Shown: piece by piece, positions 11,566 to 64,000 of the stretch
Numbering within the stretch: the first letter of the stretch is position 1
Layout of the letters: the number at the start of each line of letters is the position of its first letter
From: Chthoniobacterales bacterium
Lineage (GTDB): Bacteria > Verrucomicrobiota > Verrucomicrobiia > Chthoniobacterales > DYNR01
Assembly: GCA_026418675.1 (NCBI GenBank)
Contig: JAOAAX010000003.1
Coordinates: 32,491 to 96,490 of the forward strand
DNA: 64,000 nt
Direction: 5' to 3'
Notes under the pieces: model-generated
Databases searched by the model: none
The model's input: only the letters and a program-made list of their open reading frames with translations
What the model was told of the DNA's origin: nothing
Position numbers and translations under genes: made by a program

Positions 11566-11594
11566 CGTATGTAATTGGGAGTTGTTCAAGTTTT

Positions 11595-12161: not shown

Positions 12162-12162
12162 G

Positions 12163-12200
12163 AAATTTCTTTAAGTAGTCCGCGTTAAGGGAATTTTTCT
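12163..12200 (+). terminator. Possible weak hairpin/terminator upstream of purH
   Basis: AAATTTCTTTAA (12163-12174) pairs with TTAAGGGAATTT (12185-12196) using G-U pairs, followed by Ts. AT-rich stem. Confidence 0.25.
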
Positions 12201-12235
12201 TGAAAAGGTTTTATAATCGGACAAAGTAATTTCGA

Positions 12236-44183: not shown

Positions 44184-44203
44184 AAGTTAAGAGGACGACT
44201 GGG

Positions 44204-46305: not shown

Positions 46306-46331
46306 CTACAGTTTTATACTTGATTCCAATA

Positions 46332-47165: not shown

Positions 47166-47194
47166 AATATAGTTGATAAATTTATCAAAATTAA

Positions 47195-48061: not shown

Positions 48062-48068
48062 ATTTTTA

Positions 48069-49127: not shown

Positions 49128-49210
49128 TTAAAAATTTGGTTTCATTTACCGTGCGTTGATTTATAAGCGAATATTTTAAAAATTAAGTAAAATAATTTTT
49201 TAAAGACTCC

Positions 49211-50749
49211 ATGTCAAGGGTTAAAATAATCCCTTTCGATAGAGCAAAACAGCTTTTTTCTGAGTTACGCTCTCAAGGCAAAAAAATCGTCCAATGTCAT
49301 GGAACTTTCGACCTGATTCATCCGGGACATATTTATCATTTGGAAGAAGCTAAAGAGTTAGGGGATGTGCTTGTGGTGACTGTTACGGCTGAAAAATACG
49401 TGAACAAAGGACCAGGTCGTCCTTATTTTAATGATTTTTTGCGTTCTAAAAGCTTGGCAGCTTTGGCGTGTGTGGATTATGTAGTTTTGGTTCCTTTTCC
49501 TGCGGCAAAGGAGGCGATTGAGTGTGTTCAACCGCATATTTATTGTAAGGGCAGGGAGTATGAAGACCCGGAGAATGACCCCAGTGGGAAGATTCAGGAG
49601 GATGTTGCTACGGTAGAGGCTTTAGGGGGACAGGTGCGGTTTATTGGCAGTGTGGTTTTTAGTTCCTCTAAATTAATTAATCAGCATTTTGATGCGGTTC
49701 CAGAAGGGGTGAAACTTTTTTGCCAAAAGTTGGCGAGGAGCTGTTCACCAAAAGATTTTCGTAAGGAGGTAGAGAGTTTTGCAGACTTAAAGGTTTTGGT
49801 TTTGGGTGATGTGATCTTTGACCGATACACGTATGTTACCGTACAGGGGTTAACTTCTAAGAATCGTATTCTTTCGACAAGGATGTTAGATGAGGAAACC
49901 CACTCTGGCGGAGCTCTAGCAGTGTATCGGCACGTAAGGCAGTTCACATCCCATGTGGATTTTTGTTCGATTGTTGGCAGTGACCGATGGACGCACGAAA
50001 TGATAGAGGGGATCGTGCCGAAGGAAAATGACCTTACTCTGTATGAAGAAGGATTCACTACTATAATCAAACAACGCTTCATTGAAGATAGTGGTGCTGG
50101 GAAAGAATTGTTAAAGCTCTTTGCTGTGAATGTAATTGATTCTGAGCACCCTGGGCGTGAGGTTGCAGATAAGTTGTTAAAAATTTTAGAAAAGAACATA
50201 AAGAAGTATGATTTAGTGATTGTGGCTGATTTTGGGCACGGAACAATGCTGGAACAGGTTCGACGATTTGTCGAAGCTAAGGCAGCTTTCATGTCATTGA
50301 ATTGTCAAACGAATTCTAATAATTATGGTTTTAATGTAATAAATCGGCAGTATCGTCGAACAGACGCTTTCTCATTGGATGAAAAAGAATTAATTCTAGC
50401 CTATGGCCGCAAACAGCTACGTCATCCGGAAGATTTGATGAATTTAAAGGTTCACTTTGGTGCTGAGACAGCTTGGTGCACAAGAGGAGCCGATGAATCG
50501 ATAGGTATTAGAACTGGAGAGGAACCGGTGTTTTTAATGGCAATGGAAACACGGGTTGTAGATACAGTGGGAGCAGGAGATGCTTTTTTTTCGGTTGCTT
50601 CACTTTCTGCATGCCGAGGACACTCTGCAGCATTAAGTACTTTTATAGGTCAATTGGCAGGTGCTCATGCTGTAAGGATCGTAGGAAATCGCGAACCAAT
50701 ATCTAAAGCTCGCTTACTTAAGAGTGGAATGACACTATTAAATTTGTAA
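49211..50749 (+). CDS. Bifunctional nucleotidyltransferase (N) / PfkB-family sugar kinase (C); HldE-like with reversed domain order
   Basis: HGTFDLIHPGH, KGPGRP, KGREY, SSSK; then KVLVLGDVIFD, DFGHG, DTVGAGDAFF. Confidence 0.88.
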   Translation: MSRVKIIPFDRAKQLFSELRSQGKKIVQCHGTFDLIHPGHIYHLEEAKELGDVLVVTVTAEKYVNKGPGRPYFNDFLRSKSLAALACVDYVVLVPFPAAKEAIECVQPHIYCKGREYEDPENDPSGKIQEDVATVEALGGQVRFIGSVVFSSSKLINQHFDAVPEGVKLFCQKLARSCSPKDFRKEVESFADLKVLVLGDVIFDRYTYVTVQGLTSKNRILSTRMLDEETHSGGALAVYRHVRQFTSHVDFCSIVGSDRWTHEMIEGIVPKENDLTLYEEGFTTIIKQRFIEDSGAGKELLKLFAVNVIDSEHPGREVADKLLKILEKNIKKYDLVIVADFGHGTMLEQVRRFVEAKAAFMSLNCQTNSNNYGFNVINRQYRRTDAFSLDEKELILAYGRKQLRHPEDLMNLKVHFGAETAWCTRGADESIGIRTGEEPVFLMAMETRVVDTVGAGDAFFSVASLSACRGHSAALSTFIGQLAGAHAVRIVGNREPISKARLLKSGMTLLNL

Positions 50750-50772
50750 GCCTTTAAGTTTTTCATACCATA

Positions 50773-51735
50773 ATGAAACATATATTAGTTACGGGTGGTT
50801 GTGGATATGTGGGGACACCCCTAACAAAAAGTCTTTTAGAGGCAGGATATTCAGTAACCGTTTACGATATTCAATGGTTCGGAAATTATTTAGAACATCA
50901 TTCAAATTTAAAAGTTATAAAAGGTGATATTCGCGATGTTAATAAAATTCCAATGGATGGAATTGATGTAGTCATCCATCTTGCGAACATAGCAAATGAT
51001 CCATGTTCAGAAATTGACTCCAAATTGAATTGGGAAGTAAATGTCTTAGCAACTCAGTTTCTAGTTGAAAGTGCAGTTTCTCATGGAGTTAAGCAATTTA
51101 TTTACGCCAGTTCAGGAAGTGTTTATGGGATTAAAGAAGAACCTGAAGTAACCGAGGAACTAAGCCTAGTTCCGATTACTGATTATAATAAAACTAAAAT
51201 GGTTAGTGAAAGAATTTTGCTGAGTTATGCCGATAAAATTTGTGTAAATATTATTCGTCCTGCAACAGTCTGCGGTTATTCACCGAGGATGAGACTCGAT
51301 TTAACTGTCAACCTACTTACTTTCTCTGCTTTGTATAAAGGAAAAATAACGGTTTTTGGTGGAAATCAGACTCGACCAAATATTCACATTCGAGATATGG
51401 TTAGGGTTTATCATTTCTTTTTGGAAAACGGATTTAGCTTACCAGGCATATTTAATGCAGGATTTGAAAATTTAACAGTCCTTGAGATTGCAAAGATGGT
51501 GCAAAAATATATTCCTGCTGAAATCGAGATTCTTGATTCCAATGATCCTCGCTCCTATCGTCTGTCTTCGACAAAGCTACTTTCTGCAGGTTTTGAGCCG
51601 AAGTCAACGGTTGATGATGGCATTCAGGAAATAATTTATGTGTATCGCAAAGGAAATTTGAAGGATGAAAGAATTTATTATAATATAAAAACAATGGTTG
51701 ATCTAGTTAAAAAAGGAGAAATAATCTTGGTATAA
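50773..51735 (+). CDS. NAD-dependent nucleotide-sugar epimerase/dehydratase (extended SDR)
   Basis: TGGCGYVG, ASSGSVYG, YNKTK (YxxxK), RPATVCGYSPRMRLDL. Confidence 0.9.
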   Translation: MKHILVTGGCGYVGTPLTKSLLEAGYSVTVYDIQWFGNYLEHHSNLKVIKGDIRDVNKIPMDGIDVVIHLANIANDPCSEIDSKLNWEVNVLATQFLVESAVSHGVKQFIYASSGSVYGIKEEPEVTEELSLVPITDYNKTKMVSERILLSYADKICVNIIRPATVCGYSPRMRLDLTVNLLTFSALYKGKITVFGGNQTRPNIHIRDMVRVYHFFLENGFSLPGIFNAGFENLTVLEIAKMVQKYIPAEIEILDSNDPRSYRLSSTKLLSAGFEPKSTVDDGIQEIIYVYRKGNLKDERIYYNIKTMVDLVKKGEIILV

Positions 51736-51835
51736 ACGTAATGAGTTTAATTATTAATTACAAATCATAATAAAAGTAAGGAAATAAGAATAATTCAAAG
51801 TATTTTAATGTCACATTAATTATACATTAACCTTT

Positions 51836-52870
51836 TTGGTGAAAACAATAGCAGCAATTTTGGTAGAGAGCAAGAAACCACTTGTTATAGATGAGGTGGA
51901 AGTTCCAAAATTACGTTTTGGGCAAGTTTTGGTTGATATCCAAGTAACAAGAATTTGTGGTTCACAGATTGGAGAAATTGATGCTGTAAAAGGGCCAGAT
52001 CGTTTCTTGCCACATCTTCTTGGACATGAAGCAGGAGGAGTTGTTTTAGAGGTTGGACCAGAAGTTAATTATGTTCGGCCTGGTGACCGTGTGGTAGTTC
52101 ATTGGAGAGTTGGAAATGGTTTAGAAGCCGGAGGAACAAGTTATCTTTGGAATGGCAAAAAGGTTAATGCTGGAAATGTCACAACTTTTCAGAAATTTTC
52201 AGTTGTTTCAGAAAATCGTGTAACTCGTGTTCCCGATGATACCAGTTTTGATTTATGTGCACTTTTGGCAGATACTATAACAACTGGTTTTGGGGTGATT
52301 AATAATGATGCGAAAGTGAAAATTGGTGAGAGTGTTGTAGTTGTAGGGTGTGGTGGTATTGGGTTGGGAGTTGTGCTTGGAGCTTCGTTAGCTGGAGCTT
52401 TTCCAATAATTGCTGTTGACTTAGATGATAGTAAATTACAGGTGGCAAAACGATATGGAGCAAATTATGGAATTTCGTCTAAGGAAAAAGACTTTCTTTC
52501 CGCTTCAAAGGAAATTTTGGAAGGATTCGCCGATGTAGTAGTTGACTGCACAGGGAGACCAGAAATTTTAGAAAAAGCATTTGAACTAACATCTCCGCAA
52601 GGGCGATGTATTGGCGTGGGAGTGATGCCCTTTGATCATAGGCTATGTATAAATACACTGCCATTGCATTTTGGTAAAATTCTAACTGGTTCTCATGGTG
52701 GATCTAGCAAGCCTGCCAAAGATATACCACGTTACCTAAAAATGATAAGAGCTGGAAAATTTGAAATTTCCGGTTTTGTTTCACATAAATTGCCTTTCGA
52801 GCAAATTAATCAAGGAATTGAACTAATGAGAAAAGGAAAAGTTGTTCATTGTTTGCTTTATTTTAATTAG
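51836..52870 (+). CDS. Zinc-binding medium-chain dehydrogenase/reductase
   Basis: ICGSQ, LGHEAGG, GCGGIG; structural-Zn Cys cluster absent. Confidence 0.88.
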   Translation: MVKTIAAILVESKKPLVIDEVEVPKLRFGQVLVDIQVTRICGSQIGEIDAVKGPDRFLPHLLGHEAGGVVLEVGPEVNYVRPGDRVVVHWRVGNGLEAGGTSYLWNGKKVNAGNVTTFQKFSVVSENRVTRVPDDTSFDLCALLADTITTGFGVINNDAKVKIGESVVVVGCGGIGLGVVLGASLAGAFPIIAVDLDDSKLQVAKRYGANYGISSKEKDFLSASKEILEGFADVVVDCTGRPEILEKAFELTSPQGRCIGVGVMPFDHRLCINTLPLHFGKILTGSHGGSSKPAKDIPRYLKMIRAGKFEISGFVSHKLPFEQINQGIELMRKGKVVHCLLYFN

Positions 52871-52932
52871 TTTAGAGCACAGGTATTAATTTCTTTTATT
52901 TATAAACCTTTTCATTGTTTGAGTGATAATAA

Positions 52933-53934
52933 ATGAACATATTGGTTGTTGGTAGTAATTCGTTTACGGGATCACATATGATAAATTATTTACTAAATGT
53001 AACAGACTTTAATGTATATGCTTTTTCCAGATCAAATGAGTATGATTCTTTATTTTTAGCATATCGGCATCAAAAAAAAGTAAATCTTAAGAGGTTCCAT
53101 TTTTTCCAAGCTGATATCAATAAAGATTTGGAATTTATATGGAATAGAATTGAGGAGATTAAACCTCGCATTATTTTTTACTACGCAGCTCAAGGCGAAG
53201 TAAGGAATAGTTGGAAATGGCCAGAGGATTGGTGGTTAACGAATGCTCTAGGAATTGTTCGTTTTACAAATTTTTTAAAGAATTGTGATTTTTTGCAGAA
53301 ATTCATAATGTGTTCAACACCTGAGGTTTATGGGAATACAAAAAGAAAAATTAAAGAATCGTTTAGTTTTGACCCCAGTACTCCATACGGAGCATCAAAA
53401 CTCGCTGGTGATTTACATTTAAGGTGTTTTTTTAAGAATTATGGTTTTCCCGTAATTTTTACTCGATCATCAAATGTTTATGGTAAACACCAACAGCTTT
53501 ATAGGATTATTCCAAAAACAATTATAAGTTTATTAAAAGGAATAAAAATAACTCTACATAATAATGGGAATACAACTCGTTCATTTGTTCATATTAGTGA
53601 TGTATGTAAAGCTACATTACAAATAATTGAAAAAGGAAAAATAGGTGAAGTCTACCATATTGATAATTACTTGGATAAGCCAATAAAAATTAAGGAATTA
53701 GTAAGGAAAATTTGTAACATCTTAGAAAAGGATTTTGAAAAATGTGTTGAATATTCTAATGAGAATTTTGGACAAGATCAAAGTTATAAGTTAGATTGTC
53801 AAAAAATACAAAATGAGATTGGCTGGTCTCCAAAAATTAGTTTGTTAGAAGGAATTAATGAAGTAGTTAATTGGATTAACTTTAATTGGGAAAATATTAA
53901 AGATTTAAGTACCGAGTATGTTCACAAAAAATAA
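52933..53934 (+). CDS. RmlB-like extended SDR (nucleotide-sugar dehydratase/epimerase family)
   Basis: GSNSFTG, STPEVYG, PSTPYGASK, NVYGKHQ, RSFVHISD. Confidence 0.85.
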   Translation: MNILVVGSNSFTGSHMINYLLNVTDFNVYAFSRSNEYDSLFLAYRHQKKVNLKRFHFFQADINKDLEFIWNRIEEIKPRIIFYYAAQGEVRNSWKWPEDWWLTNALGIVRFTNFLKNCDFLQKFIMCSTPEVYGNTKRKIKESFSFDPSTPYGASKLAGDLHLRCFFKNYGFPVIFTRSSNVYGKHQQLYRIIPKTIISLLKGIKITLHNNGNTTRSFVHISDVCKATLQIIEKGKIGEVYHIDNYLDKPIKIKELVRKICNILEKDFEKCVEYSNENFGQDQSYKLDCQKIQNEIGWSPKISLLEGINEVVNWINFNWENIKDLSTEYVHKK

Positions 53935-55102
53935 TGTAAATTTTGATAAATATTTTTTAATTAAACAATATAATAATAATAAATTATTGGATATAAGTCA
54001 TAATTATTTACAACTTCAATTTAAAAATATTGATATAATATTAGATGAGATTAGAAACTTAGTAATTCGAGGTGATTTTACTTTAGGAGAGAAGGTTCAT
54101 GAATTTGAAGACAAGATTTGTAAAAGGGTTGGCTCAAAATTTTGTGTTGGTGTCGGTAGTGGAACTGATGCTATAACGCTTGGGTTGAAAGCATGTGGAG
54201 TTGGTTTCGGTGATGAAGTTATTACTACCCCTTATACATTTTTTGGAACAATTGGAGGAATATACAATTGTGGGGCTGAGCCTGTTTTTGCAGACGTGGG
54301 GACTGATTTCAATATTGACCCTGAGGAAATTGAAAAAAAGGTTACAACTAAAACCAAGGCTATCGTTCCAGTTCACTGGGCTGGTTTAATTTGTGAAATG
54401 GACAAAATAAAAAATATTGCAATTAAATATAATTTAAAAATTGTTGAAGATGCGTGTCATTGTATTGATGCTAGAAAAGATGGATTCCATGCTGGATTGT
54501 TTGGAGATGTTGGATGTTTTAGCCTGCACCCATTAAAAAACCTGAATGTATGGGGCGATGGTGGTTTTATCATTACAAATAATGAAGAAATTTATGAAAA
54601 GTTATTGCTTTTGAGAAATCATGGTCAAAAAAATAGAAATGAAATTGAAATAATTGGACATAATTCTAGACTTGATTCAATACAAGCAATAGTCGCAATT
54701 TATGTTATGGACAACCTTTTAGATAATATTACAAAAAGAAGAATTGAAAATTCTAAATATTTAACAACCAAATTAACAAATTGTATTGATAGTGAAATTA
54801 TTTCTTGCCCTGTTAGTGATGGTTCGAATAAACATGTATATCATTTATATTGCTTACGAATAAAAAAGAAACGAGATGAGTTGCTGAATTTTTTATTAAA
54901 CAATAAAATTGATGCTAAAGTTCACTATCCGATACCAATGCATTTGCAAAAGCCATTTATAAAAAAATATAAATTAGGCGATTTCCCAATTGCTGAAATG
55001 CTCTGTAAAGAAGAGCTTTCTTTGCCAGTGCATGAATTCATAACAGAAGAACATCTCGATACTATTGTTGAGAAAATAAGGGTATTCTTTTCTTTACATT
55101 AA
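53918..55102 (+). CDS. DegT/DnrJ/EryC1/StrS PLP-dependent sugar aminotransferase
   Basis: GSGTDA, PVHWAG, EDACH, SLHPLKNL, RLDSIQA. Confidence 0.92.
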   Translation: MFTKNNVNFDKYFLIKQYNNNKLLDISHNYLQLQFKNIDIILDEIRNLVIRGDFTLGEKVHEFEDKICKRVGSKFCVGVGSGTDAITLGLKACGVGFGDEVITTPYTFFGTIGGIYNCGAEPVFADVGTDFNIDPEEIEKKVTTKTKAIVPVHWAGLICEMDKIKNIAIKYNLKIVEDACHCIDARKDGFHAGLFGDVGCFSLHPLKNLNVWGDGGFIITNNEEIYEKLLLLRNHGQKNRNEIEIIGHNSRLDSIQAIVAIYVMDNLLDNITKRRIENSKYLTTKLTNCIDSEIISCPVSDGSNKHVYHLYCLRIKKKRDELLNFLLNNKIDAKVHYPIPMHLQKPFIKKYKLGDFPIAEMLCKEELSLPVHEFITEEHLDTIVEKIRVFFSLH

Positions 55103-56214
55103 TGATTAATATTCCTTTTGTAGATTTGTCAAGACAGTATAAGAAATATCAACTTCAAATTAATAAAAAAATTCAGGAAGTTTTAAATAGTGGTAATTAC
55201 ATTTTGGGCCAGAATTTGAATTATTTTGAGCAGAACTTTTCTCATTATTGTGGTGTAAAATATTGTTTAGGTGTTGCGAGTGGATCTGATGCATTAACTC
55301 TATCTTTAAAGGCGATTGGAGTTAGTGAGGGAGATGAAGTTTTACTTCCTGCACAAAGTTTTATTGCTACTGCATGGACAGTTGTAAATTTAGGAGCTAA
55401 ACCTGTCTTTGTTGATGTTGATAATGATAATAATATTGATATTAATGACTTAAATACAAAAGTAACGGAAAAAACAAAAGCTATCATACCAGTTCATTTA
55501 TATGGTAAGGTTTCTAGAATAGAAGAAATAGTTAGCATAGCCAAGAAATTTAATTTACATGTAATAGAAGATTCTGCTCAAGCTGTTGGTTCTTTAAAAT
55601 ACGGTAAGAAAGCCGGTAGTTTTGGGGTATGTTCAGCCTTTAGCTTTCATCCTCTTAAAGTTTTACATGCTTATGGTGATGCAGGGGCTGTTCTTACAAA
55701 TGATGAAAATATCTATGGTTTGATTTTAAAATTGCGTAATCATGGATTAATTAATAGAGATGAATGTGAAGTCTGGGGAATTAATTCAAGATTAGATGAA
55801 ATTCAAGCTGCTATTTTAAATTTTAAACTTAATTTCTTAGAAGATATTATATTAAAAAATATTAAGATTGCTAACTTCTATATTCATAACTTGAGTGATA
55901 TTAAAGAAATAAAACTTCCTGTTTATGATCAGGGGAATGAAAGACCAAATTTCCATCGTTTTGTGATACAATGTGAAGAGAGAGACGGGCTAATCAAGTA
56001 TTTGTTTAATAATGGTATAGAAACTAAAATTCATTATCCAATTTTAATTCCTTTTCAAAAATGTTGTCAATATTTAAATTATAAACCAGGTGATTTTCCG
56101 AATGCTGAAAGACTTTCCAAACGAATATTATCTTTGCCTCTATTTCCTGAAATGAAGGATGAAGAAATTGAATATGTTGTAAAAGTAATAAGAAATTTCT
56201 ATAATTATAATTAA
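55102..56214 (+). CDS. DegT/DnrJ/EryC1/StrS PLP-dependent sugar aminotransferase
   Basis: ASGSDAL, PVHLYG, EDSAQA, SFHPLKVL, RLDEIQAA. Confidence 0.93.
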   Translation: MINIPFVDLSRQYKKYQLQINKKIQEVLNSGNYILGQNLNYFEQNFSHYCGVKYCLGVASGSDALTLSLKAIGVSEGDEVLLPAQSFIATAWTVVNLGAKPVFVDVDNDNNIDINDLNTKVTEKTKAIIPVHLYGKVSRIEEIVSIAKKFNLHVIEDSAQAVGSLKYGKKAGSFGVCSAFSFHPLKVLHAYGDAGAVLTNDENIYGLILKLRNHGLINRDECEVWGINSRLDEIQAAILNFKLNFLEDIILKNIKIANFYIHNLSDIKEIKLPVYDQGNERPNFHRFVIQCEERDGLIKYLFNNGIETKIHYPILIPFQKCCQYLNYKPGDFPNAERLSKRILSLPLFPEMKDEEIEYVVKVIRNFYNYN

Positions 56215-56218
56215 TAAT

Positions 56219-57037
56219 ATGAATCTGTATGAATTGTCTAAAAATATAAAATTTAAAATAATTCAAATGTCATATAATGCTAAAACTCCCCATCTTTCTT
56301 CTGCAATCTCAAGTGTCGAGTTATTAGTTGCTGCATATTGGAATTTTTTGAGAATTAATCCTAAAAATTTTAATGATGATTTGAGAGATAGATTTATTTT
56401 TAGCAAAGGTCACGCAGCCCCTGCCCTTTATGTAGTTTTAGCAAAACGAGGCTTTTTTTCAGAAGATCTACTAGAAAGTTTTGGAAAACCAGGTGGAACT
56501 TTACCTGAGCAACCTGCCCCAAATTGTGTGCCAGGTGTTGAGTTAGCAACTGGGTCGTTGGGGCATGGTTTACCTGTGGGCTGCGGTCTGGCTTTGGCAG
56601 CAAAAATTAAAGGATTGGATTATTTTACAATGGTTTTAATGAGTGATGGTGAATGTAATGAGGGTTCGGTTTGGGAGGCTGCAATGTTTGCCGCTGCTAG
56701 GGAACTTAATAATTTGATTGTAGTCATTGATTTTAATAAGTGGCAAGCAACTGGACGAAGTGAAGAGATTATGGCATTAAGTCCTCTGCGAGAAAAGTGG
56801 GAATCCTTTGGATGGAGAGCTTGTGAGGTTGATGGCCACAACATTGAGGCTATAACAGAGGCCATGCATAAAGCACGAGAATTATCCAACAAACCCTTTG
56901 CAATAATTGCCCATACCGTTAAAGGAAAGGGAATTTCCTTTATGGAAGACGATAACAATTGGCATTATAGGATACCAAATGCCGATGAGGTAGAAAAAGC
57001 TCGGCGTGAATTATTCCAGGAGAACATATTTGTATGA
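56219..57037 (+). CDS. Transketolase-like protein, N-terminal ThDP-binding subunit
   Basis: RDRFIFSKGHA, TGSLGHG, SDGECNEGSVWEA...N, TVKGKG, WH. Confidence 0.93.
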   Translation: MNLYELSKNIKFKIIQMSYNAKTPHLSSAISSVELLVAAYWNFLRINPKNFNDDLRDRFIFSKGHAAPALYVVLAKRGFFSEDLLESFGKPGGTLPEQPAPNCVPGVELATGSLGHGLPVGCGLALAAKIKGLDYFTMVLMSDGECNEGSVWEAAMFAAARELNNLIVVIDFNKWQATGRSEEIMALSPLREKWESFGWRACEVDGHNIEAITEAMHKARELSNKPFAIIAHTVKGKGISFMEDDNNWHYRIPNADEVEKARRELFQENIFV

Positions 57038-57957
57038 GAAATGCTTTTGCAAAAGAAGTTACATTATTAGCGAATCAAGATGAAAATATAATTTTATTAA
57101 GTGGTGATATTGGCAATAAACTTTTTGATGAACTACGGAACTCTCATCCTAATCGGTTTTATAACTGTGGTGTTGCGGAAGCTAATATGATTGGGGTAGC
57201 TGCTGGACTTGCTATGTGCGGATTTCGCCCCATTTGCTATACGATTGCTCCTTTTTTAACTTATAGGGTAATAGAACAAATACGAGTAGATTTATGTTAT
57301 CATTTTTTATCCGTTCTACTGGTGGGAACCGGTGCTGGTTTGGCTTATGCATCTTTGGGACCAACTCACCATTCATGTGAAGAGGTAGGTATGCTTCGCT
57401 TACTGCCGGATATCAGGATTTTTGCACCGGCAGATTCAATAGAATTGCGGGCAATTTTGAGATATTGTATTAACAAAGCCGGACCTAAGTATATGAGAAT
57501 TGGTAAGAAAGGAGAGCCTGATGTGCATACCAAAGAGATAAAAATTTTAGAGGAGCCTACATCATTTCTTTTGCGCCAGGGAAAAGACGTTGCAATTCTT
57601 GCTTGCGGTTCAATTTTATCGGAGTGTTTAAATTCTGCTGAGTTGTTAGAAAAAAAAGGTTTGCAAGCTGAAATATGGAGTTGTCCCTGCATAAAACCTT
57701 TGGATGAAAAATTATTAGATAAAGTTTTTAAAACATTCTCTACCGTTGTTACAGTGGAAGAGCATTCTTACCTAGGCGGATTTGGAAGTGCTGTTGCAGA
57801 ATGGTTATGTAAAATGAAGATTGAAAAACCTAAATTAATAACCATAGGGACACCTGACGAATTCTATCATGAAATTGCTGATCAACATTTAGCACGAAAA
57901 AATTTAGGAATAGATGCTGAAAGCATTACGTCAAAAATATTAAAAAACCTAAATTAA
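57034..57957 (+). CDS. Transketolase-like protein, C-terminal subunit
   Basis: MRNAF, GVAEANMIGVAAGLA, LGPTHH, VEEHSYLGGFGSAV; ATGA-coupled to the N subunit. Confidence 0.93.
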   Translation: MRNAFAKEVTLLANQDENIILLSGDIGNKLFDELRNSHPNRFYNCGVAEANMIGVAAGLAMCGFRPICYTIAPFLTYRVIEQIRVDLCYHFLSVLLVGTGAGLAYASLGPTHHSCEEVGMLRLLPDIRIFAPADSIELRAILRYCINKAGPKYMRIGKKGEPDVHTKEIKILEEPTSFLLRQGKDVAILACGSILSECLNSAELLEKKGLQAEIWSCPCIKPLDEKLLDKVFKTFSTVVTVEEHSYLGGFGSAVAEWLCKMKIEKPKLITIGTPDEFYHEIADQHLARKNLGIDAESITSKILKNLN

Positions 57958-58080
57958 AAATTTATTTTAATTAAAAGAATAAAAATTTTAAAAATTATTT
58001 TTTTGAATTTTACTTATTTATTAAAATATTTTTAATAAAAAGCAATCCTGGTAATAGATCATAAGCTTTTTTAAAAGCAG

Positions 58081-58671
58081 ATGATAATCGGTGTGGATTT
58101 AGATAACACTATTATAAGTTTTGATTCAATTTTTTTCAAGGTGGCATATGAGGAAGGATTAATATCTAATGAAATTCCCAAGAAAAAAAATGTCGTAAGA
58201 GACGAATTAAGGCGTAGGGGATTAGAAAAAGAATGGATAAGATTACAGGGGATCGTTTATGGCAAGAGAATCATTGAAGCTGAAGTTTTTGAAGGTTTTG
58301 AGGAATTTTGTGAAGAGGCTTGCGGTAGAGGACATCGTCTTGTTATTATTAGCCACAAAACGCGATTTCCTTTTATAGGTGATAAAGTTGATTTACATCA
58401 ATCAGCTCGAAATTGGATATGTGATAAGCTATTTTATAAAAAGGGCTTAATTCAATTATCTGATGTTTATTTTGAGCTTACAAAAGCAGAAAAAATAAAT
58501 AGAATTTGTAATGTCGGGTGTGAATTTTTTATTGATGATTTACCTGAAATTTTAGAGGATCAAGCTTTTCCGGTGAATATAAAAAAAATCCTTTTCGACT
58601 CTGAAAGAAGATTTAAAAAAACATATGCTGTTGTTAACACCTGGAGTGAGGTTCTGCAATATATAAAATAA
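58081..58671 (+). CDS. HAD-superfamily hydrolase/phosphatase
   Basis: IGVDLDNTI (DxD), ISHK, FIDDLPE. Confidence 0.8.
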   Translation: MIIGVDLDNTIISFDSIFFKVAYEEGLISNEIPKKKNVVRDELRRRGLEKEWIRLQGIVYGKRIIEAEVFEGFEEFCEEACGRGHRLVIISHKTRFPFIGDKVDLHQSARNWICDKLFYKKGLIQLSDVYFELTKAEKINRICNVGCEFFIDDLPEILEDQAFPVNIKKILFDSERRFKKTYAVVNTWSEVLQYIK

Positions 58672-58804
58672 CAACTAAATAAAAATTTAAATAATATAGA
58701 TTTATAATATGCTATGAAAGTTCTATTTTAAATTGTGATGCGTTATAAAGTTAATTTATAAAAATTATTTTTTGAACAAATAACACTGCGGTATTTAATA
58801 TAAT

Positions 58805-59782
58805 TTGAAAAACGAAACCACAGATGATGACGTCAATGAAATTGCCAAATTTTTATTGGGATCAGATAACTATGAAATTTATCCGCTTCATTCCGGAGGA
58901 AATAACAGCATATTTATTGCAAAAAGAGAAAAAATAAAGATAGTAATTAAAAAATACTTTCGTGATTTGAGAGATAAACGCGATCGTTATGATACGGAAA
59001 AAAAATTTTATCTACTCGAACTAGAAAATACACCAAAAAGTCTTTTTTGGAATGATCAAAAAAAAATTGCTGCATTTGAATACATTGAAGGAAATATACC
59101 TAATGAGGTTACCTCCGATGATATTCAAAACATTGTAAAATGGATATGTTATATTCAAAAAAAACGGGATTCTTTTGTGGCAAAAGAAATATCATTGGCT
59201 TCAGATGCATGTTTGTCAATTCGTGATCACATATTTTCGCTTAAAAGAAGAATTGACAAACTACTGAATGGGAATTTAAAACACAAAGGTTTCATGGATT
59301 TTTTTCAAAATGAGCTTTACCCGAAAGCTCAAAAAATTATTAATTTTGTAGAAAAAAGCTTTTCTAGCAAACTTGATTACAAAATAGTCGAAAATTATCA
59401 AATTTTGTCTCCTTCAGACTTTGGTTATCACAATATTCTTAAAGGCAAAGATAACAAGTTATGGTTTTTTGATTTTGAATATTCTGGGTGGGATGATCCC
59501 GCTAAGTTAATTTGTGATTTTTTTTGTCAGCCGCAGGTTTCTGTCCCTTTAGGGTTTTCAGAGAATTTTATTAATGCCCTCGTTGAATTTACTGGGGATA
59601 AGGAAATTGCCAACCGTTTTGAAATTTTGTATCCTTTACATCAAGTTAAGTGGGCCTGTATTTTGTTAAACGAATTTTCGCATTCTGGAGCTGCAAGAAG
59701 GAAATTTGCTAAAAAAATTATAAATTTGGATAATCAATTGACTAAAGCAAAAAAATTGCTTTGTCAAATAAAAACATTTTAA
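58805..59782 (+). CDS. Aminoglycoside-phosphotransferase/choline-kinase-like kinase
   Basis: SGGNN loop, VIKKY, SPSDFGYHNIL, FDFEYSGWDDP. Confidence 0.8.
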   Translation: MKNETTDDDVNEIAKFLLGSDNYEIYPLHSGGNNSIFIAKREKIKIVIKKYFRDLRDKRDRYDTEKKFYLLELENTPKSLFWNDQKKIAAFEYIEGNIPNEVTSDDIQNIVKWICYIQKKRDSFVAKEISLASDACLSIRDHIFSLKRRIDKLLNGNLKHKGFMDFFQNELYPKAQKIINFVEKSFSSKLDYKIVENYQILSPSDFGYHNILKGKDNKLWFFDFEYSGWDDPAKLICDFFCQPQVSVPLGFSENFINALVEFTGDKEIANRFEILYPLHQVKWACILLNEFSHSGAARRKFAKKIINLDNQLTKAKKLLCQIKTF

Positions 59783-59806
59783 TTTCTATTTTTATTTTAA
59801 TTTAAA

Positions 59807-60478
59807 TTGATTATGGGTTGTTTAAAAAATTATATTACAAAATTACATCAATCAACAAAACGGGATTATCTCAAAAGAATGTGCGACTCCAAAGTTGAGT
59901 GCATGAAAATTGCAAGGCAATATGGATATGACTATTGGGATGGAGATAGAAAATATGGCTATGGCGGATATTCTTATATTCCTGGTAGGTGGAAAAGTGT
60001 TGCTGAAAATCTTATTAAAGATTACCAACTAGCAGATGGAATGAATATATTGGAAATTGGATGTGGTAAAGGTTTCTTATTGTATGAAATGCAATTATTA
60101 ATGCCTTCTTTAAATCTTTATGGATTGGATATATCTGAATATGCCATTAAAAATGCACATCCTAAATTAAAAGCTACTTTTTTCGTAGGTAACGCTAATG
60201 ATCTTCATATTTTTAATGATAAAATGTTTAATTTAATAATTTCGATTAATACTTTACATAATTTACCATTACATGAAATTGAGAGATCACTTAATGAAAT
60301 TGATAGGGTAGGGGATAAAGCATACATTGTGGTGGAAAGTTTTCGAAACGAACAGGAATTGTTCAATCTTCAATGTTGGGCTTTAACTGCAGAAAGTTTT
60401 TTTCGTCCGGAAACGTGGATTTATTTGTTTAATAAAAAAAGCATAAATATAGACTATGAATTTATATTTTTTGAATAA
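59807..60478 (+). CDS. Class I SAM-dependent methyltransferase
   Basis: ILEIGCGKGF, GLDISEYA, SINTLHNL; N-terminal YWDGDRKYGYGGY. Confidence 0.9.
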   Translation: MIMGCLKNYITKLHQSTKRDYLKRMCDSKVECMKIARQYGYDYWDGDRKYGYGGYSYIPGRWKSVAENLIKDYQLADGMNILEIGCGKGFLLYEMQLLMPSLNLYGLDISEYAIKNAHPKLKATFFVGNANDLHIFNDKMFNLIISINTLHNLPLHEIERSLNEIDRVGDKAYIVVESFRNEQELFNLQCWALTAESFFRPETWIYLFNKKSINIDYEFIFFE

Positions 60479-60500
60479 AACTTAAATTAATAATTTTTAT

Positions 60501-61085
60501 ATGAAAATTGCATACTTAACAAATCAAAATGCAGATTTTAAATATTTAATACCTAATTTTATATCCTCACATAAAATTGAATGTGAAATTATTACTGAGA
60601 AAGTATCATTGGAAACACTTGTAAATTTGAAAATTGACTATATAATAAGTGATAGATTTAAATTTTTATTGACACCTGAAATTTGTAGATATTATGACGG
60701 GAGAGCTCTTAATTTACATGGTTCAATTTGCCCTAATTGTAGAGGCTATTATCCAATACTTTGGACAGTAATTGAAAAAAAGCCTATGGGTGGCACCATT
60801 TTTTATATTGATGAAGGGATTGACACTGGTGATATATTACAACAATTTGAAATAGAATATACTGATAATGACACATTGAGAAGTTGCTGGATTAGAGTTC
60901 AGATGGGTATGTATGAGGGATTGTTTAAGTATTGGAATGATTTTCTTAATTTAAAAGCTCCTAGAAAAAGGCAGGTTGGTTTTGGAACATTGCATTACAA
61001 AAAGGAATTTGAGAATGTCAAAGATTTACTAACAAATGGATGGGATACAAAGATAAAAGATATTTATAAATTACTAAACAAATAA
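60501..61085 (+). CDS. Formyltransferase (N10-formyl-THF dependent), probable sugar N-formyltransferase
   Basis: NLHGSICPNCRG, IDEGIDTGDI; short single-domain form inside a sugar cluster. Confidence 0.85.
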   Translation: MKIAYLTNQNADFKYLIPNFISSHKIECEIITEKVSLETLVNLKIDYIISDRFKFLLTPEICRYYDGRALNLHGSICPNCRGYYPILWTVIEKKPMGGTIFYIDEGIDTGDILQQFEIEYTDNDTLRSCWIRVQMGMYEGLFKYWNDFLNLKAPRKRQVGFGTLHYKKEFENVKDLLTNGWDTKIKDIYKLLNK

Positions 61086-61672
61086 AAAAGATAACAATCC
61101 TTTAAAAAAACTATATTTATAGATAGTTTAATAAATAATATTCGATTTCTTTTGTTTAAATAAAAAATTTAAAGATTTAAAGTGGTGTGACTTAATTGAA
61201 TAAATAAATTACTCTGAAAAATCTACAAAAAAATTCACGTTTTTTAATCCATAAAAAATATAACGATGTTATATAACAAAAGATAATATGTTTAAGAAAT
61301 GATTTATTAATTCCCCACACAAGCAAATAGGAATTAGAGAATGATAATTTTAGTTTTCCTTGATACAATGAAAAAATGTTATTATAAAGAATTATGTTTC
61401 AAAAAAAAGATTTTTTTTTGCGAAATTATTTCATACATCAATATGGCATTTAGCTGATTCTTTATCTATGGACGTAATTTTTTTGAAACTATTGATTGTC
61501 CATATCATCTAAAAAAGTAATTTTTTTGTAACTACTAATAGAATGTTATGATAAACCAAAAAATATGAATTTATCTTGCAAAATTGGTTTAAAAAAATAG
61601 TCAAATTTTTATGTTTTCTATAATAGAATAAAAAGAATAAAAAAATAAAAAAATAAATTTTATAAATTGTGA

Positions 61673-61696
61673 TTTATAAATTTATAAATTTATAAA
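61673..61696. repeat. Three tandem copies of the palindromic octamer TTTATAAA
   Basis: Copies at 61673-61680, 61681-61688 and 61689-61696, with one more at 61659-61666. Confidence 0.7.
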
Positions 61697-61707
61697 TTAA
61701 TTCTTAT

Positions 61708-62721
61708 ATGCATTTAATTGATTATATCAGACATGTTAAAAAAAAAGATGAAATTCTCATTATTAGCCCTACAGCAATAGGTGAAGCTTTTGTTGTTGTT
61801 TTACTCTTGGAAGAAGTTTATAATAAATATAACAGAAATATTCATTTAATTTTACCGCCACATCAAACAGACATTTTAAAACTTATAAATGTTCCACGAC
61901 AATATCTGTTTTGTGGAACATGCCATTATAAACTTATTGCATCTTTTTACAAGGATTATAAAATCTTGAATATCGATAATGGTGATAATATAGTAGTTGT
62001 ATATCCTGATTACTTTTTTAGTTATCCCTTTGATTTATTTAAGTCATTTATAGATAGTAATGGAATTTTTGGTTTAGATTATGTAAAATCTATTAAAAGA
62101 GTCTTGGGTTTAAATTTAAACTGTTTATTGACTAAACCAAAAAATAATTTAAATGATATTAGTTTAAAATATTTAGAAAAATTAAATTTAAAAAAAGGAC
62201 AATATGTACTTTTTCAAGTAGGAAGTAATTCAAGAAAAGCTGTCCCTTATGAGATTTTTTTTAAAATTGCATTATATTTTTTTAATAAAGGATATGATAT
62301 AATAATAAATAGAGCAAATTCTTTATTTCAACCTAAAGAGAGATTTCCAATTGCGAAATATGAGACATCTTTCTCAATATATCATGCTAATTTGTTAGCG
62401 CTAAATGCAAGTTATGTTATATCTACTGGCTCAGGTATACTATGTTCTTTTATATATTTAAATAATCTTTCAACAATTGATACTAAATTAGTTCATATTG
62501 GAACCAATTATAGAACATTAAGTCATATACCTCCTATTATATTTGAAAAAGTTTCTCCTTTTGTAAATCATAAAAATTGCATGCCTGAAATTATTACTAA
62601 TAAAAAAAATCTCTATGAATGGTATTTGCCACTTGAGTTAAATAAAGATGAAAGGGAAAAATTTATTAATGATGTTTTAACTTTTGATAAAAAATCTTTT
62701 TTTTACATGGGACCTGTTTAA
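61708..62721 (+). CDS. Hypothetical protein, very AT-rich, possibly a divergent glycosyltransferase-like fold
   Basis: 337-aa ORF. AIGEAF near the N-terminus and ASYVISTGSGIL near the C-terminus weakly recall GT9-like motifs. Confidence 0.65.
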   Translation: MHLIDYIRHVKKKDEILIISPTAIGEAFVVVLLLEEVYNKYNRNIHLILPPHQTDILKLINVPRQYLFCGTCHYKLIASFYKDYKILNIDNGDNIVVVYPDYFFSYPFDLFKSFIDSNGIFGLDYVKSIKRVLGLNLNCLLTKPKNNLNDISLKYLEKLNLKKGQYVLFQVGSNSRKAVPYEIFFKIALYFFNKGYDIIINRANSLFQPKERFPIAKYETSFSIYHANLLALNASYVISTGSGILCSFIYLNNLSTIDTKLVHIGTNYRTLSHIPPIIFEKVSPFVNHKNCMPEIITNKKNLYEWYLPLELNKDEREKFINDVLTFDKKSFFYMGPV

Positions 62722-62746
62722 TACTAAAATAGTATCAATATTGAAT

Positions 62747-64000
62747 ATGATTATGGATATAAACGATAAAATTTTAAGGACTTTTCCTAATTCTAAAAAT
62801 GAGTTAATAAGGATAATTTTTGGAAAAAATGAAATGTTATATTTAAATGATAAAAATTATTATATTGACTTAACAGGTGGTGGCACAAGTTTCAATACTG
62901 TTGGTTATTCAAATCGTAGAATTATAAATAAGATGGTTAATAAAGCCCTACTAATTTCACATGCAGACTTTAAAACTACATTAGATGAAGATAGAGAAAA
63001 ATTAGCTGAATTACTTTTGAAGGATAACAAAATTTCCAATGAATTTGTTTATTTTGCTGGAAACTCTGGTGGCGAAGGTATTGAGGCAGCTATGAAATTA
63101 AGTTATCAAACCCATTTAGAGCTTGGATACTCTAAAAGAAATATTTTTATTTCAAGAATGGAGTCATATCATGGATCATCAACTGATGCTATTGCTATTA
63201 GTGATAGAAAAAATTTATTAATATATAAAGATTTATTTCCTTGTAATCGCTATAAGATTTCAGATCATTATTTTATTAAGAATAGGCGAATTGGAGAAAC
63301 TAAGGAAGAATATACAAAAAGATGTCTTGATGAATTTGAAAAAAAAATATTAGAACTTGGTCCTGAAAAGGTTTGTGCTTTCATAGGGGAAACAATTATG
63401 GGTGGACTACAAGGTTTTATAGAACCCTGTGATGGTTACTGGAAAGGTATTAGAGATATATGTGACAAATATGGCATACACTTAATTCTAGATGAAGTTA
63501 TCTGTGGTTGTGGTGTTACAGGAAATTATTATTGTATTGAGTATGATGGTATTACACCAGACTTTTTAGTTATATCAAAGGGTCTAACAAGTGGTTATTT
63601 TCCTTTAAATGCAGTATTGCTTACAAGGAAGACTTATGAAGCAATAAGTAATGGAAGTGGAAGAACCAATCATTCTACAACTTTTCAAGGACATTCAATT
63701 GGTTGTGCCGTAGCTTTGGAAGTTACAAAAATAGTTAAGAGGCATATTTTTTTAAAAAGGGTTCAAAAATTAGGGGATCTTGTTAGACAGAAAATAGAAA
63801 GTTATCTAAAAGGACACCCTAATTTTATAGCAGTTCATGGAAGGGGTTTAAGGATTTCAATAGAGTATTCTTTTAATAATATGATTAGTTTTGCTGATTA
63901 TTTTAGGAATTTAATGAAACAAAAATATAAAATCCTTTTAGACGTGAAATGGCATAGAATATTATTGAGTCCGCCTTTAACGATTTCTGAAGATAAACTT
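62747..64000 (+). CDS. Class III PLP-dependent aminotransferase, partial (runs off right edge)
   Basis: Manual translation: YIDLTGG, NSGGEGIEAAMK, SYHGSS, LILDEVICGCGVTG, PDFLVISKGLTSGYFPL. Absent from the ORF track because there is no stop in the window. Confidence 0.9.
   Translation, partial: MIMDINDKILRTFPNSKNELIRIIFGKNEMLYLNDKNYYIDLTGGGTSFNTVGYSNRRIINKMVNKALLISHADFKTTLDEDREKLAELLLKDNKISNEFVYFAGNSGGEGIEAAMKLSYQTHLELGYSKRNIFISRMESYHGSSTDAIAISDRKNLLIYKDLFPCNRYKISDHYFIKNRRIGETKEEYTKRCLDEFEKKILELGPEKVCAFIGETIMGGLQGFIEPCDGYWKGIRDICDKYGIHLILDEVICGCGVTGNYYCIEYDGITPDFLVISKGLTSGYFPLNAVLLTRKTYEAISNGSGRTNHSTTFQGHSIGCAVALEVTKIVKRHIFLKRVQKLGDLVRQKIESYLKGHPNFIAVHGRGLRISIEYSFNNMISFADYFRNLMKQKYKILLDVKWHRILLSPPLTISEDKL

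Follow-up and report, generated by a model that had tools for sequence, protein, structure and literature searches.

A split-transketolase sugar cassette of the Bradyrhizobium gdh type, with added amination genes, in a low-GC island of a Chthoniobacterales bacterium

The DNA studied here is a stretch of 64,000 nucleotides from a Chthoniobacterales bacterium (hereafter the window; G000:C64:32491-96490), which lies on a contig of 154,675 bp in a genome of 2.34 Mb and 47.9% GC. An open reading frame (ORF) listing of positions 49211-64000 bears out 14 co-oriented genes on the + strand, as an earlier note on this DNA had claimed (g01-g14, Table 1), and among them is a transketolase split over two genes (g07/g08). 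Nine of the genes (g01-g04 and g07-g11) form a core that is syntenic in many phyla, and the rest are locus-specific accessory genes. The core is confirmed to belong to the cassette type represented by the 11-gene gdh operon of Bradyrhizobium, and we are highly confident that the window belongs to this conserved cassette. The island is an amination-equipped variant of a cassette type that is known genetically and uncharacterized biochemically, and its product is probably a relative of the cassette sugar that carries amino, N-formyl and methyl groups. The explanation that we favor overall, which we hold to be somewhat better than an even bet, is a gdh-type cassette extended by amination and formylation, working by the chemistry proposed below and handing its sugar over to glycosyltransferases (GTs) of family GT41.

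A nine-gene cassette and the Bradyrhizobium gdh operon

Relatives of g07, the N-terminal transketolase subunit (TK-N), were sought in 185,579 species genomes, and at least 563 were confirmed. Counts over 80 loci, here and below, refer to the best 80 of these relatives (54-67% identity), whose loci were searched by tblastn with every window protein; a subset of 32 loci has at least 8 kb on either side of TK-N. The 80 loci are spread over Verrucomicrobiota, Planctomycetota, Chlamydiota, Cyanobacteria, Alphaproteobacteria, Bacteroidota, Acidobacteriota and one archaeon. The core genes are tightly packed in the related loci, and their presence in the 32-locus subset is given in Table 1. A gene for a WbuC cupin just past the window end is found in 9 of the 32 loci and probably belongs to the cassette too. 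A SIS gene lies within 23 of the 80 loci and a gene for an NTP-transferase (PF00483) within 4.

The earlier note had read the whole set as one unit and had named a lack of synteny elsewhere as a refutation. That refutation fails for the core, which recurs in many phyla. The single-unit reading holds for the nine genes that are conserved together, but not for the others: relatives of g12, g13 and g14 occur in none of the 80 loci, and DegT-family aminotransferase matches occur in 10, with two distinct adjacent DegT genes in only two of them, L014 (where the pair lies about 8 kb away from the transketolase) and L078 (where it adjoins the transketolase).

The gdh operon is the genetically studied relative of the cassette. 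According to the consulted sections of the mutant study, gdh mutants of photosynthetic Bradyrhizobium (ORS285 BRAO285v1_100023 region) lack the bradyrhizose O-antigen, the affected O-antigen being a polymer of bradyrhizose, and gdh sits in an eleven-gene cluster whose synteny is common to six photosynthetic strains (Busset et al. 2016, PMC4743980). In the excerpts used here, the O-antigen is described as a homopolymer of one monosaccharide and bradyrhizose as a ten-carbon bicyclic sugar. We searched for the 23-nt gene-specific part of the published gdh forward primer across 401 genomes from the genus to which G037, a Bradyrhizobium genome, belongs. G630 and G324 contain an exact match, G667 and others a match with one mismatch, and both published primers lie 381 bp apart within the g04 homolog (exact in G630, one mismatch each in G667). 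The cluster located in this way consists of exactly eleven co-oriented genes, in the order nucleotidyltransferase-PfkB fusion (NT-PfkB), PF00483 NTP_transferase, short-chain dehydrogenase/reductase (SDR1), SIS, gdh, TK-N, C-terminal transketolase subunit (TK-C), medium-chain dehydrogenase (MDR), HAD phosphatase, APH-fold kinase and methyltransferase. It is followed downstream by two C-methyltransferases, a WbuC-like cupin, a short-chain dehydrogenase, Wzm/Wzt and a GT2.

Of the operon's eleven gene families, the window has nine, likewise compact and co-oriented, and the WbuC cupin lies downstream in both. Identity between the window and the cluster of G667 is 26% for NT-PfkB, 57% for SDR1, 41% for gdh, 58% for TK-N, 48% for TK-C, 41% for MDR, 43% for HAD, 33% for the kinase and 43% for the methyltransferase. 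In a FastTree phylogeny of TK-N, the window and the gdh-type sequences fall into one tight clade. Furthermore, the pocket residues Gly100, Leu108 and Lys158 of g08 are the same in 3 of 3 gdh-type sequences, and the T-P-E motif of the gdh-type SDR is common to g04. The island differs from the operon in that the SIS, PF00483, two C-methyltransferase, Wzm/Wzt and GT2 genes are all missing from it, in the Gln at TK-N position 98 (His in Bradyrhizobium), and in the addition of two DegT aminotransferases, a formyltransferase-like protein, an orphan, a class III aminotransferase and GT4/GT41 proteins. The extra aminotransferases argue that the product here is probably other than bradyrhizose. The statement of the earlier note that the cluster matches no characterized pathway stands in the biochemical sense, but not in the genetic one, given the gdh operon as described in the consulted part of PMC4743980. 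A literature search on bradyrhizose biosynthesis found no paper on that subject beyond the 2016 mutant study and none that was biochemical, and one on bradyrhizose together with transketolase returned nothing.

Two other groups of Bradyrhizobium loci were considered as the gdh cluster and rejected. L119 (G037:C1:6680500-6700499) and L120 (G255:C1:5129500-5149499) were dismissed as a capsule-type transketolase and SDR locus without MDR, HAD, kinase and methyltransferase. They carry a more distant split transketolase (43% and 36% identity), and the content noted for them comprises SDRs, an APH-fold kinase, GT2s, a Capsule_synth protein and a flippase; their genomes also carry the DegT-type cassette. 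In L123, L124 and L126 there is a DegT pair and no MDR, and TK-N falls outside the clade of the window. The proteins of these three loci are identical to proteins named B. daqingense, and the DegT pair adjoins the transketolase there.

The split transketolase and a putative route to a carbon-extended sugar

The closest solved match of g07 is the split transketolase 6yak (215 bits). The best models for the two subunits are of transketolase (NF004559, 268.5 and 169 bits), against 59 and 65 bits for pyruvate dehydrogenase E1 models. We compared the residues of the relatives (n = 80 for TK-N, n = 75 for TK-C) with those of the genome's own transketolase and of solved enzymes, and transketolase residues are numbered below as we take them to be numbered in E. 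coli, with the roles that we assume for them. The cofactor and catalytic residues His26, His66, Asp155, Asn185 and His261 are kept in all 80 TK-N sequences (His25, His65, Asp143, Asn173 and His249 of g07), and Glu411, His473 and Arg358 in all 75 TK-C sequences (Glu49, His112 and Arg2 of g08). The set that contacts the sugar phosphate and the acceptor presents a different picture. His461 is replaced by Gly (Gly100 of g08) and Arg520 by Lys (Lys158) in 75/75, Asp469 by Leu (Leu108) in 66/75 and by Asn in the other 9, and Ser385 by Lys29 in g08, with Arg or Lys in 74/75. His100 corresponds to Gln98 in g07; Gln is found here in 33/80 relatives, mostly Verrucomicrobia, and His in 47/80 and in Bradyrhizobium. 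Hence, of the set Arg358, Ser385, His461, Asp469, Arg520 and His100, Arg358 alone is retained in g07/g08.

The replaced residues presumably hold the substrate phosphate and the C2 hydroxyl of the acceptor. Because they are replaced, an ordinary aldose phosphate is unlikely as the acceptor of g07/g08, and because the sugar-phosphate and acceptor residues are lost, the pair is unlikely to have a housekeeping role. A canonical full-length transketolase, with canonical residues, is encoded elsewhere in the genome, at C52:120279-122282. Judged by these residues, the acceptor pocket of g07/g08 is remodeled. The earlier note had proposed g07/g08 as a thiamine diphosphate (ThDP) enzyme for C2 addition, a proposal that gains from the rebuilt pocket and from the housekeeping transketolase elsewhere; the C-C chemistry itself we infer, and that the transketolase forms a C-C bond on a keto sugar seems to us slightly more probable than that it does not.

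The activation enzymes resemble those of the ADP-heptose pathway (GmhA/HldE/GmhB; TIGR02198, TIGR02199, NF008454, TIGR00441), which likewise uses a PfkB kinase, a cytidylyltransferase-like nucleotidyltransferase and a HAD phosphatase. The two HldE domains are the top NCBIfam matches of g01 (rfaE_dom_I 99 bits, cutoff 345; rfaE_dom_II 92 bits, cutoff 181.5; HldE NF008454 138 bits, cutoff 521). The scores are far under the cutoffs, the domain order is reversed with respect to HldE (nucleotidyltransferase at residues 30-116, PfkB at 327-497), and GmhA is not in the island. The motif HxGH is kept in 39-40 of 40 relatives of g01 and GAGD in 36-40 of 40. Among 7999 candidates scored, 3768 proteins match g01 at E <= 0.001. 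Relatives of about 512 aa and 56-66% identity are many in Verrucomicrobia, Omnitrophota and Elusimicrobia, and the closest taxon-labeled ones come from Opitutales, Chthoniobacterales and other Verrucomicrobia. The NT-PfkB fusions found with the cassette fall into at least three sequence types, which are about 50-64%, 32-38% and 24-28% identical to g01.

The remaining core enzymes carry conserved motifs. In g02, SSxSVYG and YxxxK are conserved among relatives, and the zinc ligands C41 and H64-E65 of g03 are kept in 58/58. The corresponding motif of RmlB is T-D-E; in the g04 family it reads T-P-E in 50 of 51 relatives, with the Glu in all 51, and g04 probably makes a 4-keto intermediate, as far as its motifs can tell. 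The Lys of YxxxK is Arg in 31/51 relatives of g04 and Lys in the window. The HAD and APH assignments of g09 and g10 are upheld, since the family alignments show invariant motifs despite weak database matches: D6-x-D8-N-T, S91, K138 and D152-D153 in 15/15 aligned members of g09, and D205...H209-N210 and D223-F-E225 in 14/14 of g10. Against solved structures, the g09 family profile found no match and that of g10 a single weak one (corramycin phosphotransferase 8agy, E 4e-5); the g10 homolog of the Bradyrhizobium-genus cluster matches Pfam APH at 1e-13. The SAM motif I of g11 is conserved in 62 relatives.

Elsewhere in the genome are GmhA-like genes at C75 and C131 and a heptose-7-P kinase at C98 (327.5 bits). 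A heptose nucleotide is the most likely scaffold, because g01 is HldE-like, the genome holds these genes, and SIS genes occur in 23/80 loci. The PfkB domain would phosphorylate a heptose phosphate from the cell's own GmhA route, the HAD phosphatase would dephosphorylate it, and the nucleotidyltransferase domain would convert it to a nucleoside diphosphate (NDP)-heptose, following HldE/GmhB logic. The gdh-type SDR g04 would then give a 4-keto, possibly 6-deoxy, intermediate, onto which the split transketolase would move a two-carbon ThDP-bound unit, leaving a tertiary alcohol with a C2 branch. The Zn-dependent MDR, the second SDR, the cupin and the methyltransferase would reshape the molecule, and MDR and SDR1 could set the oxidation states for closure of a carbocycle. 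For Bradyrhizobium, this route would end at bradyrhizose, a bicyclic sugar of ten carbons, counted as seven carbons from heptose, two from the transketolase unit and one from a methyl group. Here, the two DegT enzymes, the formyltransferase-like g12 and the class III aminotransferase would turn keto intermediates into amino and formamido groups, and the sugar would be handed to the neighboring GT4/GT41 enzymes, with flagellin as the most likely acceptor.

The structure of bradyrhizose is in line with such a step. Free bradyrhizose, per the consulted part of a review, forms hemiacetals via OH-4 (furanose) and via OH-5 or OH-9 (pyranoses). Because these three hydroxyls take part, C4 would be bonded to C3, C5, C9 and O, placing a tertiary alcohol at the ring fusion. 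Such an alcohol would be exactly the signature of a ThDP-bound acyl anion added to a 4-keto sugar, by analogy with YerE-type enzymes. The idea of an unusual C-C-bonded amino sugar with its own activation route, put forward in the earlier note, accordingly survives in outline: it fits the synteny of the core, the rebuilt pocket, and the presence elsewhere of a housekeeping transketolase, GmhA and heptose-7-P kinase, with the chemistry as the inferred part.

A more conventional pathway would end in a heptose nucleotide with ordinary modifications, such as the 6-deoxy- or O-methyl-heptoses of Campylobacter or Yersinia, and the transketolase would only supply sedoheptulose-7-phosphate. The HldE-like g01, the HAD phosphatase and the SIS/GmhA-like genes in 23/80 loci would all suit it, as would a 4,6-dehydratase-like SDR together with a reductase-like SDR and a methyltransferase. 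However, the sugar-phosphate residues of the transketolase are replaced family-wide while a canonical transketolase is already in the genome, and a ten-carbon sugar is made in the one organism whose product is known. A Zn-MDR and an APH-fold kinase are also not known to have a role in the heptose pathways GmhA/HldE/GmhB and DdahABC/DmhAB. We therefore regard a modified heptose as distinctly unlikely. The stricter version, in which g01 is the cell's ordinary HldE and the transketolase a mere precursor supplier, was rejected: a separate kinase for heptose-7-P is encoded in the genome, as are GmhA-like proteins and a canonical transketolase, and the missing phosphate-binding residues also speak against a precursor-supply role for g07/g08.

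Features of the same enzymes could alternatively be arranged into a route to a CDP-linked polyol phosphate or phospho-alcohol by TarI/TarJ or LicA/LicC logic, in which the transketolase makes a ketose phosphate, the MDR reduces it, kinase and phosphatase adjust it, and a cytidylyl transfer activates it. The N-domain of g01 belongs to the glycerol-3-P cytidylyltransferase family (TIGR01518, 35 bits), g10 is choline-kinase-like, and the Zn-MDR resembles polyol-phosphate dehydrogenases (galactitol-1-P 5-dehydrogenase model, 87 bits). This arrangement is nevertheless very unlikely: two extended sugar-nucleotide SDRs, one of them gdh, accompany the set in 26-28 of 32 loci, the g01 domains match HldE models best, the phosphate-binding residues of the transketolase are lost, and the Bradyrhizobium O-antigen is, in the excerpts consulted, a homopolymer of a single monosaccharide.

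Accessory genes, variable slot and destination of the sugar

The domain list of the earlier note was reproduced by Pfam and NCBIfam, with weak matches for the HAD protein and the APH-like kinase (E 8e-4 and 1e-4), and the same databases found no rmlACD, gmd/fcl, neuABC or wzx/wzy domains within 49211-64000, as that note had also said. Spacing across the 14 ORFs ranges from -38 to +133 bp, with the single exception of a 622-bp gap. Neighboring genes overlap by 17 bp (g04/g05), 1 bp (g05/g06) and 4 bp (g07/g08), and g06 stops 4 bp short of g07. The gap is extremely AT-rich and contains A/T runs and short 'TTTATAAA'-type repeats; an Rfam scan gave no family match there. Promoter and terminator scans gave signals no better than in shuffled sequence. 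Further upstream, a single 635-aa ORF at window 38378-40285 fuses a PF03279 lipid A biosynthesis acyltransferase to a PF01075 GT9 heptosyltransferase.

Table 1. Features of the island in window coordinates, with the number of loci, out of the 32 with at least 8 kb on either side of TK-N, in which each gene is present
Feature	Position	Strand	Match	Loci of 32
g01, NT-PfkB fusion, 512 aa	49211..50749	+	Pfam PF01467 + PF00294	23
g02, extended SDR (SDR1), epimerase/reductase type, S...YxxxK	50773..51735	+	Pfam Epimerase 1e-37	28
g03, Zn-dependent medium-chain dehydrogenase (Zn-MDR)	51836..52870	+	Pfam ADH_N, ADH_zinc_N	26
g04, extended SDR (SDR2), 4,6-dehydratase-like, Bradyrhizobium gdh homolog	52933..53934	+	TIGR01181 199.5 bits (cutoff 365)	26
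g05, DegT-family sugar aminotransferase, accessory	53918..55102	+	Pfam DegT 3e-100	
g06, second DegT-family sugar aminotransferase, accessory	55102..56214	+	Pfam DegT 3.5e-106	
g07, transketolase N-terminal, ThDP-binding subunit (TK-N)	56219..57037	+	Pfam Transketolase_N	
g08, transketolase C-terminal, pyrimidine-binding subunit (TK-C)	57034..57957	+	Pfam Transket_pyr + Transketolase_C	32
g09, HAD-superfamily phosphatase	58081..58671	+	TIGR01488 E 8e-4; PF12710 E 0.007	28
g10, APH/choline-kinase-fold small-molecule kinase	58805..59782	+	PF01633 E 1e-4	26
g11, class I S-adenosylmethionine (SAM)-dependent methyltransferase	59807..60478	+	Pfam Methyltransf_31, _25, _11	28
g12, short formyltransferase-like protein, 194 aa, accessory	60501..61085	+	PF00551 2e-15	0
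AT-rich non-coding gap, 622 bp, parting g01-g12 from g13 onwards	61086..61707	.	no ORF >=80 aa	
g13, orphan, 337 aa, accessory	61708..62721	+	no Pfam or NCBIfam match	0
g14, class III (omega-type) aminotransferase, accessory, cut at window end	62684..64000	+	PF00202 1.8e-63	0

The accessory genes point to amination and formylation. The top solved relative of g05 is the nucleotide-sugar aminotransferase 3uwc (317 bits), in which an identical stretch aligns with SLHPLKNLN of g05, and those of g06 are 7b0d (306 bits) and QdtB 3frk (294 bits), the Lys of SFHPLK in g06 aligning with a Lys of 7b0d. We take the Lys of SxHPLK in both proteins to be the pyridoxal phosphate lysine. Inosose aminotransferases are also among the solved relatives of the pair. 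The catalytic triad of sugar N-formyltransferases is Asn-His-Asp, and g12 carries N-x-H (LNLHGS) and DTGD; its top NCBIfam match is dTDP-4-amino-4,6-dideoxyglucose formyltransferase (56.9 bits, cutoff 238), and at 194 aa it is short. The full g14 gene encodes 455 aa (L001:175-1542, where L001 is the next 20 kb after the window; PF00202 3e-64) and ends at window-equivalent position 64051. The orphan g13 found only itself among 5.8 billion proteins in a word-seeded search, and a full HMMER pass over 1.84 billion representatives gave 17 weak relatives, the closest at 34% identity. A search of 400 other genomes of the phylum did not find it, a 13-member profile matched no Pfam family and no PDB chain, and in an Atlas feature search a GT9 cluster ranked 14th, which we treat as a lead only. 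We give an amino or formamido product an even chance.

These genes could instead belong to a second pathway that lies side by side with the first, the cassette making a non-aminated sugar and the accessory genes a separate formamido-dideoxyhexose or N-acyl side group from dTDP-4-keto-6-deoxyglucose. The loci speak for a separation, with relatives of g12, g13 and g14 in 0/80 and the adjacent DegT pair in 2/80, and so does the 622-bp gap between g12 and g13, where GC falls further to 24-27%. A true RmlB (487 bits) and six PF00483 nucleotidyltransferases are encoded elsewhere in the genome. QdtB acts on dTDP-hexoses, and it is among the solved relatives of the DegT proteins. On the other hand, the DegT genes sit inside the cassette, overlapping g04 by 17 bp and ending 4 bp before the transketolase, and L078 and the B. 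daqingense-type clusters likewise have a DegT pair next to the transketolase. By Pfam and NCBIfam, the island has no rmlA/rmlB, 3,4-ketoisomerase or second activation route. Two unrelated pathways are thus rather unlikely, and a single aminated product of the cassette is preferred.

GC content drops across the cluster from 38% to 24%, compared with 47.9% for the genome. The same-family genome G697 has rmlA/C/B, Wzm/Wzt and a NeuB/NeuC-type nonulosonic-acid cluster downstream of its syntenic ABC transporter (68-75% identity), and because a different glycan cluster stands there behind the same transporter, the site is a variable glycan slot. The cassette transketolase is present in 0 of 2 same-family genomes and in 8 of 40 relatives (E <= 1e-50), the closest of the eight at 62% identity, no nearer than other phyla. 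The low GC together with this patchy distribution and the lack of closer relatives indicates horizontal acquisition. A horizontally mobile, low-GC glycan island in a variable chromosomal slot is the best explanation of the region. In G697 (L162:5000-20000; G697:C7) the slot holds a legionaminic-acid-type cluster of normal GC (53-58%), with rmlA/C/B, Wzm/Wzt, GNAT, UDP-GlcNAc 2-epimerase, NeuB, CBS-nucleotidyltransferase, SDR, DegT and hexapeptide transferase genes. On the + strand, window 1-12000 shows an unusually strong GC skew (0.41-0.50), and the skew flips from positive to negative at about L001:9000, at the end of the island, which may mark a replication terminus/origin boundary; the region inspected for the flip is L001:8000-11000 (C64 at about 103-106 kb).

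The next 40 kb of the contig were inspected beyond the window. There, the remainder of g14 is followed by the WbuC cupin (157 aa, L001:1512-1985; TIGR04366 123.4 bits, cutoff 42; 10/10 aligned relatives match), a 2274-aa GT4/GT41 protein, g17 and two-component regulators. The 2274-aa protein comprises GT4 (about 361-700), a GT41-like module (about 1180-1370), a tetratricopeptide repeat (TPR) array (about 1450-1870) and a C-terminal GT41 domain, and g17 is a 760-aa TPR-GT41 protein (PF13844 2e-55, with TPR families). Among solved structures, g17 best matches two protein O-glycosyltransferases (PDB 8dtf, 7y4i, 7yeh, 3pe3), SPINDLY at 439 bits and human OGT at 326 bits. Like these, g17 combines a TPR array at the N-terminus with a GT41 domain at the C-terminus, and its giant neighbor terminates in the same TPR-GT41 module; the proteins here differ in being bacterial, and the giant one adds GT4 and a second GT41-like module. 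The earlier note saw no clear glycosyltransferase and advised extending the contig rightward for glycosyltransferases and exporters. Clear ones begin 496 bp past the window end; the extension recovered GT4/GT41, with no Wzx/Wzy or Wzm/Wzt seen in the next 20 kb. The surface glycan that the note gave as the destination of the sugar is not the sole possibility, since the adjoining glycosyltransferases are of the protein-modifying GT41 type.

A comparable arrangement exists in L044, a contig of a Verrucomicrobiota metagenome-assembled genome, where two flagellin genes, a TPR-GT41 gene (34% identical to g17), SIS and the cassette are adjacent and co-oriented. In L044:1-15387 the tandem flagellins lie at 15-875 and 1066-1920 and the TPR-GT41 gene at 2556-4478, with the cassette directly behind. 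The HAD and kinase parts of this locus are covered by one 542-aa ORF (11724-13352), maybe a natural fusion. The genome studied here has two flagellin genes, on other contigs, and one further TPR-GT41 gene, on C109, besides the GT41 modules of the island. A match to g17 over at least 40% of its length was found in 4 of the 80 loci; only that of L044 spans GT41, the other three being weak and in part confined to the TPRs. The glycoconjugates that the cassette serves differ between hosts. Protein glycosylation in this host, with flagellin as the most likely acceptor, is a tentative assignment that we place a little short of even. In its fullest form, the proposal is that the transketolase adds C2 to the C4 ketone of an NDP-heptose, the carbocycle is closed, up to three aminations and N-formylation follow, and GT41 attaches the product to flagellin or another protein, giving a so far unseen aminocyclitol-fused sugar of the ten-carbon class; this whole chain is speculative and, taken together, unlikely.

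Several points weigh against the favored explanation. With respect to the gdh operon, polar effects of the gdh mutations were not excluded by the authors, and the consulted sections of their paper contain no mention of a transketolase and no list of the 11 genes (PMC4743980); the gene content given above is our reconstruction from Bradyrhizobium-genus genomes, not taken from that paper. The SIS and PF00483 genes of the operon had no tblastn match in window 44001-64000 or in the next 18.5 kb, and the island's NT-PfkB is only 26% identical to that of Bradyrhizobium. With respect to the chemistry, T-P-E in place of T-D-E makes 4,6-dehydration by g04 less certain, the transketolase could act before nucleotide activation, and the 7+2+1 carbon count is our own arithmetic on a sugar described only as ten-carbon and bicyclic. 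The literature searched yielded no assay of any cassette enzyme. Given g12-g14 in 0/80 loci and RmlB and six PF00483 enzymes elsewhere, the genes for amination and formylation may work in a dTDP-hexose pathway of their own. Finally, no flagellin gene was found on the contig of the window, flagellin genes are nearby in only 1/80 loci and Wzt-like exporters in 6/80, and the GT41 enzymes may take a different donor sugar.

Relation to other ThDP-dependent sugar-branching systems

In the parts consulted of two publications, the ThDP enzymes that branch sugars are YerE-like (yersiniose, erwiniose, caryophyllose) or alpha-ketoacid dehydrogenase (alpha-KADH) pairs (aldgamycin, avilamycin, kibdelomycin) (PMC9306805, PMC12247030), and for acyl-branched sugars the YerE-type scheme relies on enzymes of the decarboxylase family (PMC9306805). 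The cassette resembles these systems in having a ThDP enzyme gene beside a 4,6-dehydratase-like SDR and oxidoreductases in a nucleotide-sugar cluster, and its expected product would likewise have a tertiary alcohol at the branch point, as far as those accounts go. It differs in that g07/g08 belong to the transketolase family, not to the decarboxylases or the alpha-KADH2 enzymes, and the unit passed on by a transketolase would be hydroxyacetyl (dihydroxyethyl), taken from a ketose or from hydroxypyruvate, and not pyruvate-derived acetyl.

Closer in enzyme family are the miharamycin and amipurimycin clusters, in which a two-gene transketolase has been proposed to move a hydroxyacetyl unit onto a keto sugar. 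As stated in the consulted part of a 2025 review, transketolases acting on keto sugars are only proposed (miharamycin, amipurimycin) and the split-gene enzymes unstudied in vitro, with 13 further putative split-gene sequences, all from Streptomycetes (PMC12247030). Judging by the descriptions, the two kinds of system are set apart, the former being Streptomyces antibiotic clusters and the cassette belonging to glycan loci of many Gram-negative phyla. The cassette is not mentioned in the consulted parts of PMC12247030 or PMC9306805.

One could accordingly ask whether the island makes a diffusible secondary metabolite of the aminoglycoside or peptidyl-nucleoside type. In the excerpts consulted, split-gene transketolases are proposed only for miharamycin, amipurimycin and 13 Streptomyces clusters, the solved relatives of the DegT proteins include inosose aminotransferases, and a class III aminotransferase is present. 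Against this stand the lack of any nonribosomal peptide synthetase, polyketide synthase, exporter or resistance gene, the GT4/GT41 neighbors, the O-antigen-type cluster in the same slot of a same-family genome, the O-antigen operon that is the studied relative, and the one relative located in a flagellin island. A diffusible metabolite is for these reasons extremely unlikely, and a sugar for glycoconjugates remains the preferred product.

With at least 563 matches in many phyla, the cassette would be a large natural reservoir of keto-sugar transketolases and of sugars with new carbon skeletons. It offers a defined gene set for the enzymatic production of carbon-extended sugars, and a transketolase with a natural ketone-accepting pocket would be of interest for biocatalysis. 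If the proposal is true, the product of highest novelty would be a new kind of bacterial protein glycan arising from a new use of transketolase. The variant described here suggests that amino and formyl groups can be added to the scaffold, and that protein glycosylation may be a use of it besides O-antigens.

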